UHGV virus genome: UHGV-0124605
Strand: one strand, 5' to 3'
DNA from: a virus
Length of the DNA stretch: 19,203 bases
The notes below the pieces were generated by a model. It did no database searches, was not told the DNA's origin, and saw nothing but the letters and a program-made list of their open reading frames with translations. Below are positions 11,733 through 19,203 of this stretch, one piece after another; the first letter of the stretch is position 1; each line of letters starts with the position of its first letter. The position numbers were made by a program, and so were the translations under genes.

Positions 11733-13028
11733 ATGGCTACTTGGCAAGGATCAAATGGCGGATTGTTGGCTGGTATCGGCGGCGTCAACTCAAACGCTCC
11801 GAGCGTAAATGACATCGGCAATACGCTTCAGCTTATCAGGCAGAACAATGATATTGAGCGTTCAGGCGCTAACAATGTTGGGCTGACTGCTTTGCAAGGC
11901 CTTTCAGGTATTGCGGGGGTGTTTCAGCTGGAAAAGCAGGCTCAGCGGCAGAAAGAATTTCAGCAGGCGTACGCTAATGCTTATGCGTCTGGTGATCGCG
12001 GTGCTTTGCGTCAGTTGGCTACTCAATATCCAGACCAGATTGAATCCGTTCGTAAAGGCATGGGATTCATTGATGAAGACCAGCGGAATTCTATCGGCAC
12101 CTTAGCGGCTGGCGCACGCCTTGCGTCATCGTCTCCAGAAGCAATGCAATCATGGCTGCAAAACAACGCCAAGGAACTGACTCGCGTCGGTGTTGACCCT
12201 AACAGCGTTGCTCAGATGTATCAGCAGAATCCTTCAGGATTTGGTGAGTTTGTTGATCACCTTGGAATGGCTGCTCTTGGCCCGATTGACTACTTCAATG
12301 TTCAGGACAAGATGGCTGGTCGTGAAATTGACCGAGGCAGGCTGGCAGAGACAATCCGCAGCAATCAGGCTGGAGAAGCACTAACAGCGCGTGGTCAGGA
12401 CATCCAGATACGTGGACAGAACATCAGCGCACAGAATGCTGCTCTTTCCCGCGAAATACAAAGAGCAGAATTACAAGAAAAGGCTCTGGACAGACAGATA
12501 GCCAGAGAAAGCAATCAGTTAAAGCTTGAAGAGCTAAAACAGAAACAGGCAGATGTTCGGCAAAAGGCTGACATAGCCCGCGCTGACAGGCAGGCCGCCG
12601 CTCAGGGTGCAGTTGATACGTTCAGCACCGCGCTTGATTCTCTCAACGAGATAGAGCAAAGCCCCGGCCTTTCAAAAGCAGTAGGAATTCGCTCAGCGTT
12701 TCCGACAGTTCCTGGCTCTGATGCGGCTAACTTTGAAGCAAGGCTCGACACCTTTAAAGCTCAAACATTCCTTCCTATGGTGCAGTCCCTGAAGGGTATG
12801 GGCGCTCTTTCAGATGCTGAGGGTAAAAAATTATCCGATGCGGTTGGTGCCCTAAGCCCCAAAATGAGTGAAAAGGCTTTTCGTGACTCTATCGGAAAGA
12901 TTAGAAATCAGCTTGAAAGCAAGTTGAGCACTGTTAAAAAACAGTTTGATTATCAGGAGCCAGTACAGAATATGCCAGGGCAACAATCTACTACTGGCAG
13001 TAACTTTTCTTCACTATGGGGTGATTAA
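11733..13028 (+). CDS. 20: Ejection (E) protein gp20-like
   Basis: 431 aa in the syntenic position after gp7, with low-complexity Gln/Ala-rich and coiled-coil content typical of P22-like internal ejection proteins. Stop overlaps the next start. Confidence 0.8.
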   Translation: MATWQGSNGGLLAGIGGVNSNAPSVNDIGNTLQLIRQNNDIERSGANNVGLTALQGLSGIAGVFQLEKQAQRQKEFQQAYANAYASGDRGALRQLATQYPDQIESVRKGMGFIDEDQRNSIGTLAAGARLASSSPEAMQSWLQNNAKELTRVGVDPNSVAQMYQQNPSGFGEFVDHLGMAALGPIDYFNVQDKMAGREIDRGRLAETIRSNQAGEALTARGQDIQIRGQNISAQNAALSREIQRAELQEKALDRQIARESNQLKLEELKQKQADVRQKADIARADRQAAAQGAVDTFSTALDSLNEIEQSPGLSKAVGIRSAFPTVPGSDAANFEARLDTFKAQTFLPMVQSLKGMGALSDAEGKKLSDAVGALSPKMSEKAFRDSIGKIRNQLESKLSTVKKQFDYQEPVQNMPGQQSTTGSNFSSLWGD

Positions 13029-15025
13029 TGGCTAAAGCATGGAAAGATGTTATCGCCTCTCCACAGTATCAGGCGTTAGCACCAGAACAAAAAGCGCAGG
13101 CTCAGGAGCAATACTTCAATGAAGTCGTGGCCCCGCAAGCCGGAGAAAATGCAGAGCAGGCTAAGCAAGCTTTCTATGCTGCCTATCCATTGCCATCTGT
13201 GCAGCCAGTGGAGACACAACAACCAGTAGCACAGCAACAACCACAGCAAAGTGGATTTATGTCTGATCTTGGTGAAGCAGTAAAAGAGACTGGTCGCGGA
13301 CTGGTGCAGGCTGGCGTGAACGTGGCAAACATACCTGCATCAGTTGCCGATGCTGTAACAAGCGCGGCGGCTTGGGCTGGCGGTAAACTCGGTATTGGCG
13401 ATGGTACATATCAACCAGCACCACGAGTAACAACGCAGGGATTAGAGCAGGACTTTGGCCTTCAGCAAGGTGCGCTGACTCCACAAACGACAGAGGGAAG
13501 GGTATTTGCTGAAGCATTGCCTTACCTCACTCCTGCTGGCGTTGAGAGAGCGGCGGTACAGGCACCAACACTTGCTGGTCGAATTGCTCAGGGGGCAACT
13601 CGCCTTCTAGCAGAAAACGCAGTTGGATCACTTGCTGCAAATAGTGCGAAAGATGATGCGGAAGCACTCGCCACCGATTTAGGCGTTGGTGTACTTGCTG
13701 GCGGTGCTATTAACGCTGCCGGACGTGGATTAGGTGCTGCTTATCGTGGCGTTCGTGGTGCTATCGCGCCAGAAGCGCAGCAGGCTATCAGATTTGCAGA
13801 GCGTGAAGGAGTTCCTCTGCACACCACAGACCTGTTACAACCAACTTCCCGCGTCGGAAAAATGGCGCAGACTACAGCAGAAAATATCCCTCTGGCTGGC
13901 ACAAGCGGAATGAGAGCAACGCAACAGGAAGCTAGAAGCCAGTTGGTGCAGAGATTTGCTGATAAATTCGGTGAGTATGATCCAGCGGTTGTTATTGACA
14001 GCCTTAAAGCGAAAACATCAGGAATTCGTCGTGCTGCAGGGAATCGTCTTGAGCAGGTTCAGAATGCAATGGCGGGAGTCAATATCCAGCCTGCGCGAGC
14101 AATTCAGCAGATTGATACTGAGATATCTAATCTGCAGAAGCTTGGTAAGGTAGCTGATAACGAGACAATTTCAAAACTTCAGTCATATCGTGATGAGCTT
14201 GTTCGCAATGCTGGTCCTGATGGTCCGGTAAATCTGGATTTGAAGCAATTAAGCGACCTGCGCAGCCAGTTCAGAATGGACGTGAAGGGTGAGCGACCAG
14301 TGTTACCAAACCGTTCCGATGCTGCCATTCAGCGCGTTTACAAGGCAATGACTGACGATATCAATGGTGCCATTGGTCAGAATCTTGGCAACGATACTCT
14401 CCGTAAATATCAGCAGGCCAATGCCGTCTACGCTGACGAAGCGGCGAAACTAAAGAATACCAGGCTGAAGAATGTTCTCATGAAAGGCGACCTGACGCCG
14501 GAAGTCGTCAACAACATGCTATTCAGCAAGAACAAATCGGAAATTAAGACGCTGTATAACTCAGTTGGTCGTGTTGGCAGGGCGCAAATGCGCAATGGCA
14601 TCATTGGAAAGGCGATGGAGAAATCTGGCGGATCCCCTGACCAGTTCCTTCGGCAGCTTAACATCCTGCAAAACCAGACTGGCATCACATTTAAGGGGCA
14701 GGACGCTGCTTATCTGAAAGGATTAAAAAACTACCTGCAATCCACGCAGCAGGCTGCAAAAGCGGCAGTAACAACACCCACAGGGCAGCAAACTATCCCG
14801 TTCATTATTGGGTATGGGACGGCAATGAACCCGGCGACAACTGGCGCAGCAGTAAGCTACGGACTTCTTACTCGCGCCTATGAGAGCGAGCCATTCAGAA
14901 ATGCAATGCTCCGAATGGCAAACACCCCACGCGGATCAACAGCGTTTGAGAAAGCCATGCAGCAGGCACAAAAGGCAATTAACGCTATGACGCAGGGGGC
15001 TAAGTCTGATGCGTTGTCAGAATAG
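13028..15025 (+). CDS. 16: Ejection (E) protein gp16-like
   Basis: 665 aa in the syntenic position, the last gene of the late structural block before the accessory region. Ala/Gly/Gln-rich as in gp16-type proteins. Confidence 0.8.
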   Translation: MAKAWKDVIASPQYQALAPEQKAQAQEQYFNEVVAPQAGENAEQAKQAFYAAYPLPSVQPVETQQPVAQQQPQQSGFMSDLGEAVKETGRGLVQAGVNVANIPASVADAVTSAAAWAGGKLGIGDGTYQPAPRVTTQGLEQDFGLQQGALTPQTTEGRVFAEALPYLTPAGVERAAVQAPTLAGRIAQGATRLLAENAVGSLAANSAKDDAEALATDLGVGVLAGGAINAAGRGLGAAYRGVRGAIAPEAQQAIRFAEREGVPLHTTDLLQPTSRVGKMAQTTAENIPLAGTSGMRATQQEARSQLVQRFADKFGEYDPAVVIDSLKAKTSGIRRAAGNRLEQVQNAMAGVNIQPARAIQQIDTEISNLQKLGKVADNETISKLQSYRDELVRNAGPDGPVNLDLKQLSDLRSQFRMDVKGERPVLPNRSDAAIQRVYKAMTDDINGAIGQNLGNDTLRKYQQANAVYADEAAKLKNTRLKNVLMKGDLTPEVVNNMLFSKNKSEIKTLYNSVGRVGRAQMRNGIIGKAMEKSGGSPDQFLRQLNILQNQTGITFKGQDAAYLKGLKNYLQSTQQAAKAAVTTPTGQQTIPFIIGYGTAMNPATTGAAVSYGLLTRAYESEPFRNAMLRMANTPRGSTAFEKAMQQAQKAINAMTQGAKSDALSE

Positions 15026-15115
15026 CTTTTCAAATACCAGGAACGTGCAAAAACCAAATATGTAGAACGCGAGGTTTATCGTATCCCTCTGCATAGGCGA
15101 TACCTTTGCTGATTG

Positions 15116-15601
15116 TTATCTGATGTTACTGCTACTGTTGCATGTGACTGTATTTCCAAACCCTGAATTGCAGTTTGTGTAAGTGTCAACTCGTGTTGGA
15201 TAGGGTTGAGTTATAACAGGCTGTCTCGCTTTTTGCTCGATCGCTTGCATTGTGTTTACAGCCTGATAATTCAATAAAGCCTGCTGGAATGCTTGGCTTT
15301 GCGCTATTTGTTGGGCTTGTTCTTGGCTTTGTAGTTGAACATAAAGATTCTGAAGCTCAAGTCTTGCCTGCGCGTCACTTATCTTGCCATCATCGACACC
15401 TTGCCCGAGCATCTTCGCAGCAAGGACATATAACTTAGGTGTTGGTGCTGATGCCATGCGTGAGTCGTTCTTCACGCTAGCATCAAGGCAATTAGCCATA
15501 TCGCTAAGCTTTGGATAGCGTTGTTCGCAATTTGCCTGATAGTCGCTAACCTTTGCACACCCTGCCAGCAGAAGCGGGATAATTAACAGTGATTTTTTCA
15601 T
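15116..15601 (-). CDS. Predicted lipoprotein (161 aa), function unknown; candidate superinfection-exclusion or lysogenic-conversion protein
   Basis: On the - strand, strong RBS AAGGAGAG 7 nt upstream of the ATG at 15601-15599. Signal peptide MKKSLLIIPLLLAGC with lipobox LAG|C. Mature part has two Cys pairs and a Gln-rich helical segment. The ORF-track start at 15631 would place the RBS inside the coding sequence, so I prefer 15601. Confidence 0.7.
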   Translation of the reverse strand: MKKSLLIIPLLLAGCAKVSDYQANCEQRYPKLSDMANCLDASVKNDSRMASAPTPKLYVLAAKMLGQGVDDGKISDAQARLELQNLYVQLQSQEQAQQIAQSQAFQQALLNYQAVNTMQAIEQKARQPVITQPYPTRVDTYTNCNSGFGNTVTCNSSSNIR

Positions 15602-15735
15602 ATGATTAACTCTCCTTATCTTTGCCATCATGGCACTGTTGGGTGTAAATGAGTTATTAACTCAATCGACAATATCTTCACGAAAATACTTTTTATTATT
15701 AAGATCTTTCTGATTCTAACAAAACGTAAAGTAAT

Positions 15736-16155
15736 ATGAAGAGGATTATCGGCGTCGTTGCTGGCGCTATATTGTTATCTGGGTGCGCAACTATTGTTGG
15801 TGACGAAACACAGCTTGTGCAAGTGAACAGCAATCCTTCCGGCGCGAGCTTTAAGGTAAAAGACGAATCAGGCGTGATTGTTGCGCAAGGTAAGACCCCG
15901 CAAGGAGTAACTCTTGCCAAGTCAGATGGTAGTTATTTTGGCAAAAAGAGCTACCAGATCACTATGGAGAAGGATGGGTACGAACCAGTTACCCTGCCAA
16001 TCAAAGCCAATGCTAATGGTTGGTATATTGGTGGAAACCTTGTGTTTGGTGGGTTAATTGGTTGGCTTGCTGTAGATCCATTTAATGGCGGGATGTATAC
16101 CTTGAAGCCTAAAGAGGCAAATGCATCCCTTATACCGTCCACAAAGCAAGACTAG
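15736..16155 (+). CDS. Predicted lipoprotein (139 aa) with PEGA-like beta domain and Gly-rich hydrophobic C-terminal segment, function unknown
   Basis: Signal peptide MKRIIGVVAGAILLSGC with lipobox LSG|C. NSNPSGASFKV...GKTPQGVTL...GYEPV resembles a PEGA-type domain. C-terminal WYIGGNLVFGGLIGWLAVDPFNGGMY is glycine-zipper-like. Followed by a terminator hairpin. Confidence 0.7.
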   Translation: MKRIIGVVAGAILLSGCATIVGDETQLVQVNSNPSGASFKVKDESGVIVAQGKTPQGVTLAKSDGSYFGKKSYQITMEKDGYEPVTLPIKANANGWYIGGNLVFGGLIGWLAVDPFNGGMYTLKPKEANASLIPSTKQD

Positions 16156-16162
16156 TAAATGG

Positions 16163-16186
16163 AACCCACCATCAGGTGGGTTTTTT
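16163..16186 (+). terminator. Rho-independent terminator hairpin between the convergent lipoprotein and mnt genes
   Basis: AACCCACC (16163-16170), loop ATCA, GGTGGGTT (16175-16182), then TTTT. The downstream arm overlaps the last codons and stop of mnt on the opposite strand. Confidence 0.6.
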
Positions 16187-16423
16187 GTACAAATCCTTCA
16201 GCGTATCAAACACCATCTTCTTAACAAGTTCAGACTGCTCATCAGCGATACGTTCCGCATCGTCTCGATAGCCTGAAATTTTGGATGGCTTTGATACAGC
16301 ATCAGTCACTATCTGAACTAATTCTGAATTAAGAGAGCGGCCATTGGATTTGGCTCGCTGTTTTAGTTTTTCCTTTAATTCGTAAGGTAGCCGCAGATTA
16401 AATTGCGGGTCATCTCTTCCCAT
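16172..16423 (-). CDS. mnt: Mnt repressor (ribbon-helix-helix, Arc/MetJ family)
   Basis: 83 aa: MGRDDPQFNLRLPYELKEKLKQRAKSNGRSLNSELVQIVTDAVSKPS...GYRDDAERIADEQSELVKKMVFDTLKDLYKKPT, near-identical to P22 Mnt as recalled, same length. Confidence 0.93.
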   Translation of the reverse strand: MGRDDPQFNLRLPYELKEKLKQRAKSNGRSLNSELVQIVTDAVSKPSKISGYRDDAERIADEQSELVKKMVFDTLKDLYKKPT

Positions 16424-16557: not shown

Positions 16558-19203
16558 ATGACAGACATTACAGCCAATGTTGTAGTGAGCATGCCTTCGC
16601 AACTCTTTACTATGGCCCGCTCTTTTAAAGCCGTAGCTAATGGCAAAATTTATATCGGTAAAATTGACACTGACCCAGTAAATCCTGAAAACCAGATTCA
16701 GGTTTATGTGGAGAATGAAGACGGTTCTCACGTTCCTGTTTCGCAACCTATAATCATTAACGCTGCTGGATATCCGGTATATAACGGACAGATTGCCAAG
16801 TTCGTAACTGTGCAAGGCCATTCTATGGCTGTTTATGATGCGTATGGTGCACAGCAGTTCTATTTTCCTAATGTGCTGAAGTATGACCCGGATCAGTTTA
16901 AACAAAAAGTATTATCAAATGATATGCTAAATATGTCTCCTCTTTATTTTGGAGCTAAGGGGGATGGGATTAGCGATGATACTGAAGCATTTGTCGCGTT
17001 GGAAATGGATATAAAAAATAGGGTTATTGATTTAAGTGGAAGAGCATTTTTTGTTACTAAAAGTTTTATTGAAAATAGCTATATAAATGGTTCTTTTATT
17101 CGTGATGGCAGTAAACGAATTGCGATTGGTGATCTTAAATTAAGAGATAAAAGAGAGCCATTGATATTTTCCGGAATGCCAAAAGTATATAACACCAGAC
17201 ACACGTTGCGCAGAACTGAAGGTGCGGGTGGTTTATATGCGGTCATTCAGGGGTGTTGTTATGATGAAATTAACGACAAGATTTTTACTTTATCATCTAC
17301 CACAGCATACGGTTATTGCATTAATGCCTTTGACGTGACGAATTCTGGTGAACTAGGAAGATACGACAGAACCCGTTCTACTGAACTTGGGCATCAGGGG
17401 CTTGGATTGCATCATAATCCTGATGGTACTGTCGTGCTGTGGACATCGAAGCCTTATGGAACCGATGCCGCCAATCAATGTATTTCGATGGAAAATATAT
17501 TGAGTTACACAGGGACAACCAACGGAGTATCTGAAGGTTTTATCACCTGGAAGTTGTTCCCCTATGATGGAATGAGCGCAAGCTCTACTCCAACTGTATC
17601 AAGTTGTGAAAACTATCTCCTTGCCAAGAAAATTTCATCGGATGGAATTACCTGCACGGTTCGTGTTTTCGACATAGTCAGCATGTGGAATAACAGAGCT
17701 CATAAAACTGATTATAGTGATGATTATTTAGTTGAGTTTAGCTATCAAAAACCATCACAAGAAGCATTTACCCAATCAATTGCTTGCGATGGGGCATACA
17801 TTTACATACTTGAGTCACATACGTATGTTGGCATGACTAATTATATTTACGTATTTGACTTAACAGGCAGGTTTATTGAGCGAGTAGATATTTCAACTGT
17901 TGGTGATGATGAAGCAAAATCTGACAGTACAGGAACTCCTGTTTATAAAGAGCCTGAGTCCCTAACAGTAATTAGAACGGAGAGTGGGTATGTTTTAACG
18001 CTGGGGATATGCACATATAAAGGAGTTGCTGAGAACGGGAAAAATGTATATCTGTTTGATATAGGCAGGTCTGGTTCGGTAGTGCAAAGCAAAGCAAGCC
18101 GTTCTGTATCCAGTAATACTGGTCTTCATAGTTCTGGCTCCCCGGAGTTCAAATATGGAGTAAGGGAGTACAATGATACTTTTCACTGGACAGTTTGGCC
18201 AACAAGAAAGGGTATTCAAACTAACCGGGATAACCCTATATTGTTTCTTGATGGCGGAATTACTGGTGGAATGCAGTTAGCTTCAAACGGCACGGAAGGG
18301 ATGAGCAACTCATGGGTTTCCCGGCATCAGTCAGACACCGCAGAAGGACCAAGAGCAATAATGTATAAGTCTCGCTCTGGTGTTGTATCAACTGATAATT
18401 TTGGAGCTCTGCAGACAGGGGATGTATTGGGTACTCATGTATGGGCCGGTGATACAGGTAGCAAGGCTGTGCAATGCGCACGCATTAAATGCGTCACAAG
18501 AGGTAATCCTTCCGGAGACAATATCCCGGTTGCTTTCTACTTTGGAACCATGGGTGAGAGTGACGGCTTGCGTGACAGATGGGTATTAACAGAATTAGGT
18601 CATTTTCGACCATCAGGTTCAAATATTTATGATATTGGTACACAGTCGAATACTGTCAGAAACCTGTATATAAATAATAGCCCCATTGTAACCAGCGACA
18701 GAAATCACAAGCAGGATGAAGCTTCATTATCTGATGCAGAACTACGGGTTGGAATGGCTATTTACCCGCTGATAAAAAAATTCAGAATGAAGGATGCTGT
18801 AAAAGAAAAAGGCTTGTCAGCGCGTGAGCATATCGGTGTAATTGCGCAAGATATACAATCCATCTTTGAATCTGAGGGGCTTGATGCATTTTCTTATGGG
18901 GTTCTTTGCTATGAAGAGTGGGATGATGAGTATGAGAAAGTCTATGCAACAAGAAATGTGACCAGAAAAATTTTAATTGATGAAGAGTCTGGTCAGTATG
19001 ATGAAATCACAGAGGAAGAAGAGTATGAAACTGGTGAAGTAAGGTTAATTATGGAATCAGGAAGAAAATTATCAGTGCGCTATGACGAGTTAATGTTTCT
19101 GGCAATGAGCGCACTATATCATCACCATGAGCAGGATATTGCCAATATCACATCAAAGATTAATAATCTGGAAAAATTATTAAAGTTAACACTAAATGGT
19201 TGA
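16558..19203 (+). CDS. 9: Tailspike protein, mosaic: P22 gp9-type head-binding domain, uncharacterised central receptor-binding/depolymerase-like domain, endosialidase-type C-terminal intramolecular chaperone (peptidase S74-like)
   Basis: 881 aa. Residues 1-113 match the P22 tailspike head-binding domain from memory ([11 protein letters not shown]...[33 protein letters not shown]...QGHSMA.YDA.G.Q....NVLKYDPDQ). The centre begins with a [13 protein letters not shown] motif. The C-terminus ([11 protein letters not shown]...HIGVIAQDI...[10 protein letters not shown]...) resembles the K1F endosialidase chaperone domain. TGA stop is at the window end. Confidence 0.93.

Follow-up and report, generated by a model that had tools for sequence, protein, structure and literature searches.

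Two separately mobile prophage lipoprotein genes at the gp16-mnt junction of a P22-like phage: possible agents of phage exclusion

The locus between gp16 and mnt

The stretch of viral DNA analyzed here, UHGV virus genome UHGV-0124605 (19,203 nucleotides, referred to as the window), represents the late region of an Sf6/Gally-type phage from the P22-like group (Lederbergvirus). Between its gp16-type gene and its mnt repressor gene lie two genes, which we call A and B, and our main finding is that these very probably encode exported lipoproteins that are conserved under selection, transcribed in the prophage state and carried as independent morons. The features of the locus are the following:

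13028..15025, plus strand: gp16-type DNA-ejection (DNA transfer) gene, last gene of the conserved late-operon block, Sf6-like
15116..15601, minus strand: gene A, lipoprotein precursor of 161 amino acids, N-terminus MKKSLLIIPLLLAGC
15602..15735, no strand: intergenic spacer between A and B, 134 bp, 70% AT
15677..15705, plus strand: probable sigma-70 promoter of B, TTCACG-N17-TAAGAT
15736..16155, plus strand: gene B, lipoprotein precursor of 139 amino acids, N-terminus MKRIIGVVAGAILLSGC
16161..16186, plus strand: intrinsic terminator of B, a 10-bp stem and U-run, with the hairpin spanning the mnt stop codon
16172..16423, minus strand: mnt repressor gene, matching Pfam Arc (2.8e-22) and Repressor_Mnt (2.2e-18)

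A preliminary description, made from the letters of the window alone, had the gp16 gene ending at 15025, mnt beginning at 16172, and between them two open reading frames (ORFs) read as back-to-back lipoprotein genes, the second followed by a clean terminator. All of these lie where it placed them, both genes have canonical lipoboxes, and the terminator (16161-16186) folds at -18 kcal/mol with z = -3.4 and is annotated as a terminator in epsilon34. The 13028..15025 product has a match at E 3e-239 to phrog_770 'DNA transfer protein' and shares 33% identity with P22 gp16; at the DNA level the gene is 94% identical to Sf6 gene 13. The GC content is 29.9% in the spacer, 43.3% in the island as a whole and 50.1% in the late operon.

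The reading of this segment as an accessory island was borne out, in that it sits in the hypervariable 'ant moron' slot already known from P22-like phages, in which epsilon34 gene 15 (a B homologue) was recorded without function in 2008 (PMC2629481). The description had also pointed to superinfection-exclusion genes at this place in P22, which does carry sieA and orf59a there, in the order mnt-orf59a-sieA; the minus-strand sieA (164 amino acids) is separated from gene 16 by 22 bp. In Sf6 and IME10 the tailspike gene follows the gp16 homologue with no gene in between, and other relatives carry different genes, so that A and B are inserted genes absent from close relatives, as expected of morons. 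Both Sf6 and IME10 are viable without the island (PMC2629481).

The lipobox pattern [LVI][ASTVI][GAS]C is present in both proteins, as LLLAGC with Cys15 and Ala at +2 in A and as LLSGC with Cys17 and Ala at +2 in B, and the cysteine is invariant or nearly so across both families. Under the Lol-avoidance rule lipoproteins with no Asp at +2 are sorted to the outer membrane, and A and B are therefore both predicted to be lipidated and held at its inner face. The frame of A extends further, to 15631, and the Gally annotation adopts this longer ORF, but the start at 15601 is better supported, because homologues from other genera begin at the MKK codon, GGAG precedes it, and homology with Salmonella phage VSe13 stops just upstream. 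The ratio of nonsynonymous to synonymous substitution rates in unsaturated comparisons is 0.038-0.039 for A and 0.032 for B, showing that both are under strong purifying selection. Each also has its own (function-less) PHROG family, and together with transcription in the lysogen this identifies A and B as real genes.

No terminator was found at the convergent gp16/A junction, between gp16 and the island, and for the 90-nucleotide gp16-A spacer of the window (15026-15115) both a terminator and a relic of mnt were ruled out. Escherichia coli ETEC1730, by comparison, retains a remnant of the mnt C-terminus (...AEQQSEMVKKIVFDTLRDLYKK; L034:4342-4419) in the interval from its gp16 homologue to A, indicating a past rearrangement at this junction. 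At the other gene, 9-14 nucleotides ahead of the B ATG, positions 15722-15727 read GTAAAG in the window and GGAAAG in Gally, and the GGAA at this site is also kept in epsilon34, E94 and Pseudescherichia. The ribosome-binding site of B may thus be slightly weaker in the window copy.

Gene A occupies the sieA position of P22-like prophages

Protein A consists of a helical domain with conserved Cys25 and Cys38, a Q/A-rich spacer and a C-terminal Cys144...Cys154 loop, and no membrane-spanning or hydrophobic segment was found in it beyond the signal peptide. The close family comprises 91 clusters at 90% identity, all from Enterobacterales and none functionally named. An exhaustive profile search extends it to about 256 clusters at 50% identity that share one architecture, namely the lipobox Cys, the helical domain, a Q/A/S-rich spacer of variable length and the loop with C144 and C154. 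Within the helical domain Q22, C25, E26, C38, Y58, L65, V69 and A79 are invariant or nearly so. For the genomic context of the remote relatives, three scans of viral contigs gave no match and a scan of genome contigs gave five species only.

At all loci with both flanks readable, A lies in a P22-like prophage directly 3' of, and convergent with, the gp16-type gene and before the tailspike gene, and this position is constant from 98% down to 35% identity. The loci are those of E. coli Gally, O104:H4 C227-11 and ETEC1730, Salmonella phage VSe13, Serratia marcescens, Morganella morganii, Yersinia ruckeri, Proteus phage Brookers, Providencia and Tatumella, and a Serratia sp. whose relative is only 35% identical. 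The slot holds A alone in Morganella and Yersinia. In O104:H4, ETEC1730, Proteus phage Brookers and the Serratia sp., A is located downstream of mnt and shares its strand, the two being separated by small gaps or by one small ORF. The 2011 outbreak strain O104:H4 C227-11 has a tight array of mnt, a 104-amino-acid ORF and A, with A last (L032:4500-5573); its A protein is 98% identical, is annotated 'lipoprotein', and is encoded beside a P22-type gp16 without B.

The location that defines the SieA family, on the minus strand of a P22-like prophage and flanked by genes 16 and 9, is also that of A wherever both flanks can be read. SieA is present in 22 of 66 sequenced P22-like phages (PMC10883804), and neither type A (P22) nor type B (E. 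coli HS) of SieA occurs at any of the approximately 195 loci that carry A or B. We ruled out that A is itself a diverged SieA, as it has no transmembrane helices and no FxRYPxEAxxFNK motif and the two give no BLASTP alignment. A proteins that are 97-98% identical adjoin gp16 proteins of the Sf6, P22 and epsilon34 types, which are only about 33% identical to one another, and this also rules out that A co-evolves with the neighbouring gp16.

Gene B is a cassette found in phages and chromosomes

The family of B exceeds 728 clusters. Its structural model, with a predicted local distance difference test (pLDDT) score of 76, shows a confident beta-sandwich of the PEGA/transthyretin/CnaB type (residues 25-93), followed by a Gly-rich helix (95-113) and a beta-hairpin (121-131). 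The invariant part is the Gly-rich helix with the hairpin (N94-P125), which lies outside this fold. The helix is only moderately hydrophobic, at 1.3 on the Kyte-Doolittle scale compared with 2.2-2.6 for the helices of SieA. Against Pfam PEGA (PF08308) the B protein of the window scores 17.6 bits, below the gathering threshold of 20.8; none of 28 family members clears this threshold, and 4 of the 28 reach E <= 0.01.

B is found in several different slots. It lies between the tail chaperone G/T and tape-measure genes in HK97-like prophages of E. coli and in Proteus prophages, between I and J in Pseudescherichia, which is the site of the gp22 moron in HK97, and directly after the N gene in the lambdoid immunity region of an Arsenophonus prophage (L205:6001-6417). 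In Enterobacter, the B homologues (L203/L204:6001-6390) are stand-alone chromosomal genes beside a toxin gene of the GhoT/OrtT type and srfB-like genes, with no phage genes nearby, and a longer form of B is present in the chromosome of an unidentified bacterium.

A hairpin with a T-run follows B in 7 of 7 phage and prophage loci. The P22-like copies keep TTCAC(A/G)-N17-TA(A/G)GAT at -59 from the start codon despite differing spacers: epsilon34 and E. coli E94 have TTCACA-N17-TAGGAT with the same 17-nucleotide spacing, and the window has TTCACG-N17-TAAGAT. The -10 block TAGGATGTTT(C/G)CG is also found upstream of B in the Pseudescherichia siphovirus prophage and in a chromosomal homologue. From these elements B fits the textbook picture of a moron, a cassette of putative promoter, gene and terminator, of a composition (43% GC for the island) distinct from the 50% of the late operon. 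For A, neither a conserved promoter nor a 3' terminator was found.

Two observations concern the neighbours of B in siphovirus prophages. The HK97-like E. coli prophages with B (L004-L009, ~12261-16388) carry a porin gene between the tail genes M and L and, after L, genes for an Arc/Mnt-like repressor, a ClpP-like protease and a Bro-N/P22_AR antirepressor, which amounts to an immI-like module within a siphovirus tail cluster. Proteus siphovirus prophages have a 76%-identical homologue of P22 orf59a on the minus strand, 1.5-2.2 kb upstream of the B homologue (L016:5315-5491, L017:4714-4890, L018:5315-5491 and L019:4617-4793), indicating that ant-moron genes circulate between podovirus and siphovirus prophages.

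A and B travel separately

Escherichia phages Gally and vB_EcoP-720R6 carry the complete island, with 97% identity. Elsewhere A and B are mostly found apart: Salmonella phage VSe13 has A with other neighbours and without B, and epsilon34 has B (its gene 15) beside an hkcB-like gene and without A. Among IMG/VR contigs, B is missing from 64 of the 80 that bear A, and A is missing from 63 of the 80 that bear B, with an hkcB-like gene on 12 of those 63. The same holds for 5,426 complete E. coli genomes, of which 440 match part of the island and 24 carry both genes. The preliminary description had treated A and B as a two-gene unit, and these counts (both genes on 16 of 80 and 17 of 80 viral contigs and in 24 of 440 genomes) speak against it.

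The 134-bp segment between the genes had been described as an AT-rich divergent control region shared by A and B. It is AT-rich, as the composition given above shows, but it is neither shared nor conserved as a unit. Homology with the A-only phage VSe13 stops about 17 nucleotides upstream of the A ATG, and homology with B-only phages is limited to the B-proximal 65 or so nucleotides. This pattern identifies the spacer as a recombination joint and not a conserved divergent control region. A generic promoter scan of the spacer was uninformative (3 matches, compared with 3.4 expected in shuffled sequence). We conclude that A and B are two unrelated, independently acquired and separately mobile single-gene morons.

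Expression of A and B in the Gally lysogen

Expression was assessed in published RNA sequencing (RNA-seq) data for E. coli LF82 with the Gally prophage, from tables S1 and S4 of PMC9928086. These data concern the 97%-identical Gally locus (OV696608) and not the window sequence itself: L001:3617-4656 of Gally corresponds to 15116-16155 of the window, and GALLYPH_13 and GALLYPH_14 are 98.8% and 100% identical to A and B, respectively. Values of log2(fpkm+5), where fpkm denotes the fragment count per kilobase of transcript and per million reads mapped, are as follows, with DMEM standing for Dulbecco's modified Eagle medium and LB for lysogeny broth:

Overnight LB: A about 6.1, B about 5.5
DMEM: A 7.9-8.2, B 9.8-10.5
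Macrophages, 1 h: A 10.3, B 11.0
Macrophages, 6 h: A 8.6, B 9.45

The gp16 gene remains at 3.6-4.15 in every condition. Expressed as fpkm relative to gp16, A reaches 7.5-118 times and B 5.3-195 times across the five conditions, with GALLYPH_13/14 at 30-195 times the neighbouring gp16 in DMEM and macrophages, and B is at 0.5-0.9 of the level of the C2 repressor in DMEM. The suggestion that the island is active in the lysogen was thus correct, with A and B at 5-195 times the adjacent gp16 gene (PMC9928086), and both genes show the prophage expression expected of morons. Across conditions, the transcript ratio of B to A lies anywhere between 0.7 and 4.8, a range of about sevenfold, which indicates that the two genes are regulated separately and disagrees with the joint regulation that had been proposed.

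In overnight LB, A is at 4.5 times and B at 3.3 times the prophage median, just below the 5-fold cut-off of the authors, who stated that Gally is devoid of morons (Misson et al., PMC9928086). The same difference between overnight LB and the remaining conditions is seen for the gene rpsT, so we read the pattern of A and B as expression in active cells and not as a response to macrophages, and did not adopt macrophage-specific induction as an explanation. In the same lysogen, mnt and the tailspike gene are up 40-fold and 21-fold, respectively, in macrophages relative to LB.

Comparison with known exclusion and conversion proteins

A and B are deposited as hypothetical proteins and belong to PHROGs of unknown function, and we found no paper in the literature that characterises either. 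Pfam, NCBIfam, PADLOC, PHROGs and PDB searches returned no characterised relative, in agreement with the remark in the preliminary description that neither resembles a nameable family; for A there is no relative at all in Pfam or PDB, and sequence searches of the PDB with three profiles gave nothing meaningful for either protein.

P22 SieA, a superinfection-exclusion protein of which types A, B and C are distinguished, resembles A in its place, orientation and size (164 and 161 amino acids), in its expression from the prophage, in being an envelope protein (by prediction in the case of A) and in its restriction to P22-like prophages. The two differ in that SieA is a polytopic inner-membrane protein with the FxRYPxEAxxFNK motif (present in both P22 and HS SieA and absent from A and B), whereas A is a lipoprotein predicted for the outer membrane that lacks membrane helices and does not resemble SieA in sequence.

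For B, the nearest parallel in arrangement is gp15 of HK97, an inner-membrane exclusion moron that derives from cellular YebO and lies between G/T and the tape-measure gene (PMC3594210). B shares with it the identical slot in HK97-like prophages, the layout of promoter, gene and terminator, and the possession of cellular relatives outside prophages. The sequences are unrelated, gp15 being a 62-amino-acid single-pass inner-membrane protein and B a 139-amino-acid beta-sandwich lipoprotein. The fold of B is of the PEGA, transthyretin-like or CnaB type.

Other precedents are small lipoproteins. Cor of phi80, N15 and HK022 and Llp of T5 are phage outer-membrane lipoproteins that inactivate FhuA from its periplasmic face and provide the template for receptor masking. 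P22-like phages are not known to use FhuA; they bind O-antigen and then a secondary receptor that is unknown or of the OmpA/OmpC type. Lambda Bor is likewise a moron lipoprotein that is expressed from the prophage and alters the host envelope (serum resistance); A and B match no named family.

Other features of the window

The window phage has kept mnt and has no arc and no ant, with 134 bp between the start of mnt and the start of the tailspike gene at 16558. The tailspike (16558-19203, 881 amino acids) has a head-binding domain of the P22 type at residues 1-113 (E 4.5e-67) and, at residues 713-774, an intramolecular chaperone domain of the endosialidase type (Peptidase_S74, 32.9 bits for a cut-off of 22).

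Possible functions of A and B

The explanation that we favour, with a probability of roughly 0.4, is that A and B are two independent envelope-altering morons that most likely act by phage exclusion; the anti-phage mechanism is what we infer from position, predicted location and parallels. Within this explanation, A would be an occupant of the sieA position specific to P22-like phages and, in many relatives, the tail of the mnt transcription unit. It may take the role of SieA from the periplasmic side, as an outer-membrane-anchored protein that stops superinfecting P22-like phages. It would do so through its disulfide-bonded helical domain and tethered C-terminal Cys-loop, the variable tether and conserved loop suggesting a head held at the outer membrane that presents a small knob some way into the periplasm, and it could either mask an outer-membrane secondary receptor or block the trans-periplasmic conduit of the ejection proteins. 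A block from the periplasmic side is the most economical proposal for A given its equivalence to sieA in position, orientation, transcription unit and host range and the mutual exclusivity of the two, and we advance exclusion by A tentatively, as somewhat short of an even chance. The further proposition that A founds a new family of periplasmic, outer-membrane-anchored exclusion lipoproteins, alternative to SieA across Enterobacterales, is doubtful; to this family belongs a wider superfamily of some 250 unnamed clusters (50% identity) with the same Cys-bonded helical head and tethered Cys-loop.

B would be a generalist cassette that was taken over from a cellular lipoprotein family and moves among moron slots in prophages of both podoviruses and siphoviruses. 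That it occurs in different types of phage and has relatives in cells suggests that the target is the host envelope and not a particular phage. The beta-sandwich and a glycine-rich, membrane-seeking helix would most probably bind or reorganise an outer-membrane component, resulting in receptor masking or in some other conversion of the envelope. Masking similar to that by Cor or Llp and a phage-unrelated conversion similar to that by Bor fit B equally well, and we regard exclusion by B as unlikely.

Several results weigh against exclusion. The exclusivity of A and SieA may be mere competition for one physical slot, the occurrence of near-identical A beside three different gp16 types means that A is not co-adapted to the ejection protein of its own phage, and A and SieA do not align. 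Pfam, NCBIfam, PADLOC and PHROGs hold no functional family for A or B, no defence model of PADLOC-DB 2.0 matches either at E <= 1, and a structure search of BFVD gave no named match. Outside the signal peptide there is no similarity to Cor or Llp, the matches being confined to residues 1-30 at E 0.003-0.7 (phrog_1119 over residues 1-20/30, NCBIfam Cor at E 0.19, 8a60_B over residues 1-30). The model of A has a pLDDT of 65 and is of moderate confidence only, B is found both as an ordinary gene of the chromosome and in phages whose entry machinery is unrelated, which fits a general envelope role as well, and in the Gally study A and B were not counted as morons in overnight LB (PMC9928086).

A possible, though doubtful, alternative is that both genes, or B alone, are lysogenic-conversion factors with a host benefit unrelated to phages, as in the case of lambda Bor or Lom; such a benefit could be tolerance of envelope stress, resistance to serum or antimicrobial peptides, or interaction with host cells. 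This would agree with the large size of the B family and its non-phage chromosomal members in Enterobacter and others, with the travel of B among phages that differ in receptors and entry devices, with the high transcription of A and B in DMEM and within macrophages, and with the induction of Bor by DMEM in the lambda-like LF82 prophage Perceval in the same dataset. However, deletion of the whole Gally prophage left the survival of LF82 in THP-1 macrophages unchanged at 6 or 24 h (PMC9928086), the pattern of low expression in LB and high expression elsewhere is common to rpsT and may reflect growth state, and a generic benefit is hard to reconcile with A having been found in no prophages other than P22-like ones, each time at the sieA position.

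It is improbable that A and B act in the lytic cycle of their own phage, by masking receptors on debris (the 'lytic conversion' of T5 Llp) or by aiding lysis and release. B does run in the direction of the late operon, both here and in all the siphovirus prophages examined, so that antiterminated late transcription would also express it, and there is no terminator between gp16 and the island. A, though, runs opposite to the late operon and is co-oriented with the lysogeny gene mnt in relatives; moreover, expression of both genes is strong when the late genes are silent, and phages without the island are viable (Sf6 and IME10, PMC2629481).

Least of all do we expect A and B to form one two-component exclusion system with a shared divergent control region, a highly improbable arrangement even though they stand back to back around a 70% AT spacer and occur together in Gally, vB_EcoP-720R6, 16-17 viral contigs and 24 E. 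coli genomes, because about 80% of the occurrences of each gene are without the other, their neighbours elsewhere differ, B exists in siphovirus prophages and chromosomes without A, the spacer is not conserved as a unit, and the transcript ratio is not constant.

Implications for P22-like prophages

How P22-like phages cross the periplasm, and how prophages block them, is only partly understood, and SieA, the single characterised injection blocker, is carried by only about a third of these phages. A is a sharply defined candidate for an alternative, as it lies at the sieA position, never occurs with sieA, keeps that position in at least 8 genera and is strongly expressed in the lysogen. It is present in clinically relevant strains, namely E. 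coli O104:H4 C227-11 and the adherent-invasive E. coli LF82. B offers a convenient model of moron mobility, since it moves among podovirus prophages, siphovirus prophages and the chromosome. The S1 and S4 data correct the published statement that Gally has no morons (PMC9928086). Prophage moron lipoproteins are already known as a kind; A is in addition a well-circumscribed and testable lead to a possible new exclusion family.

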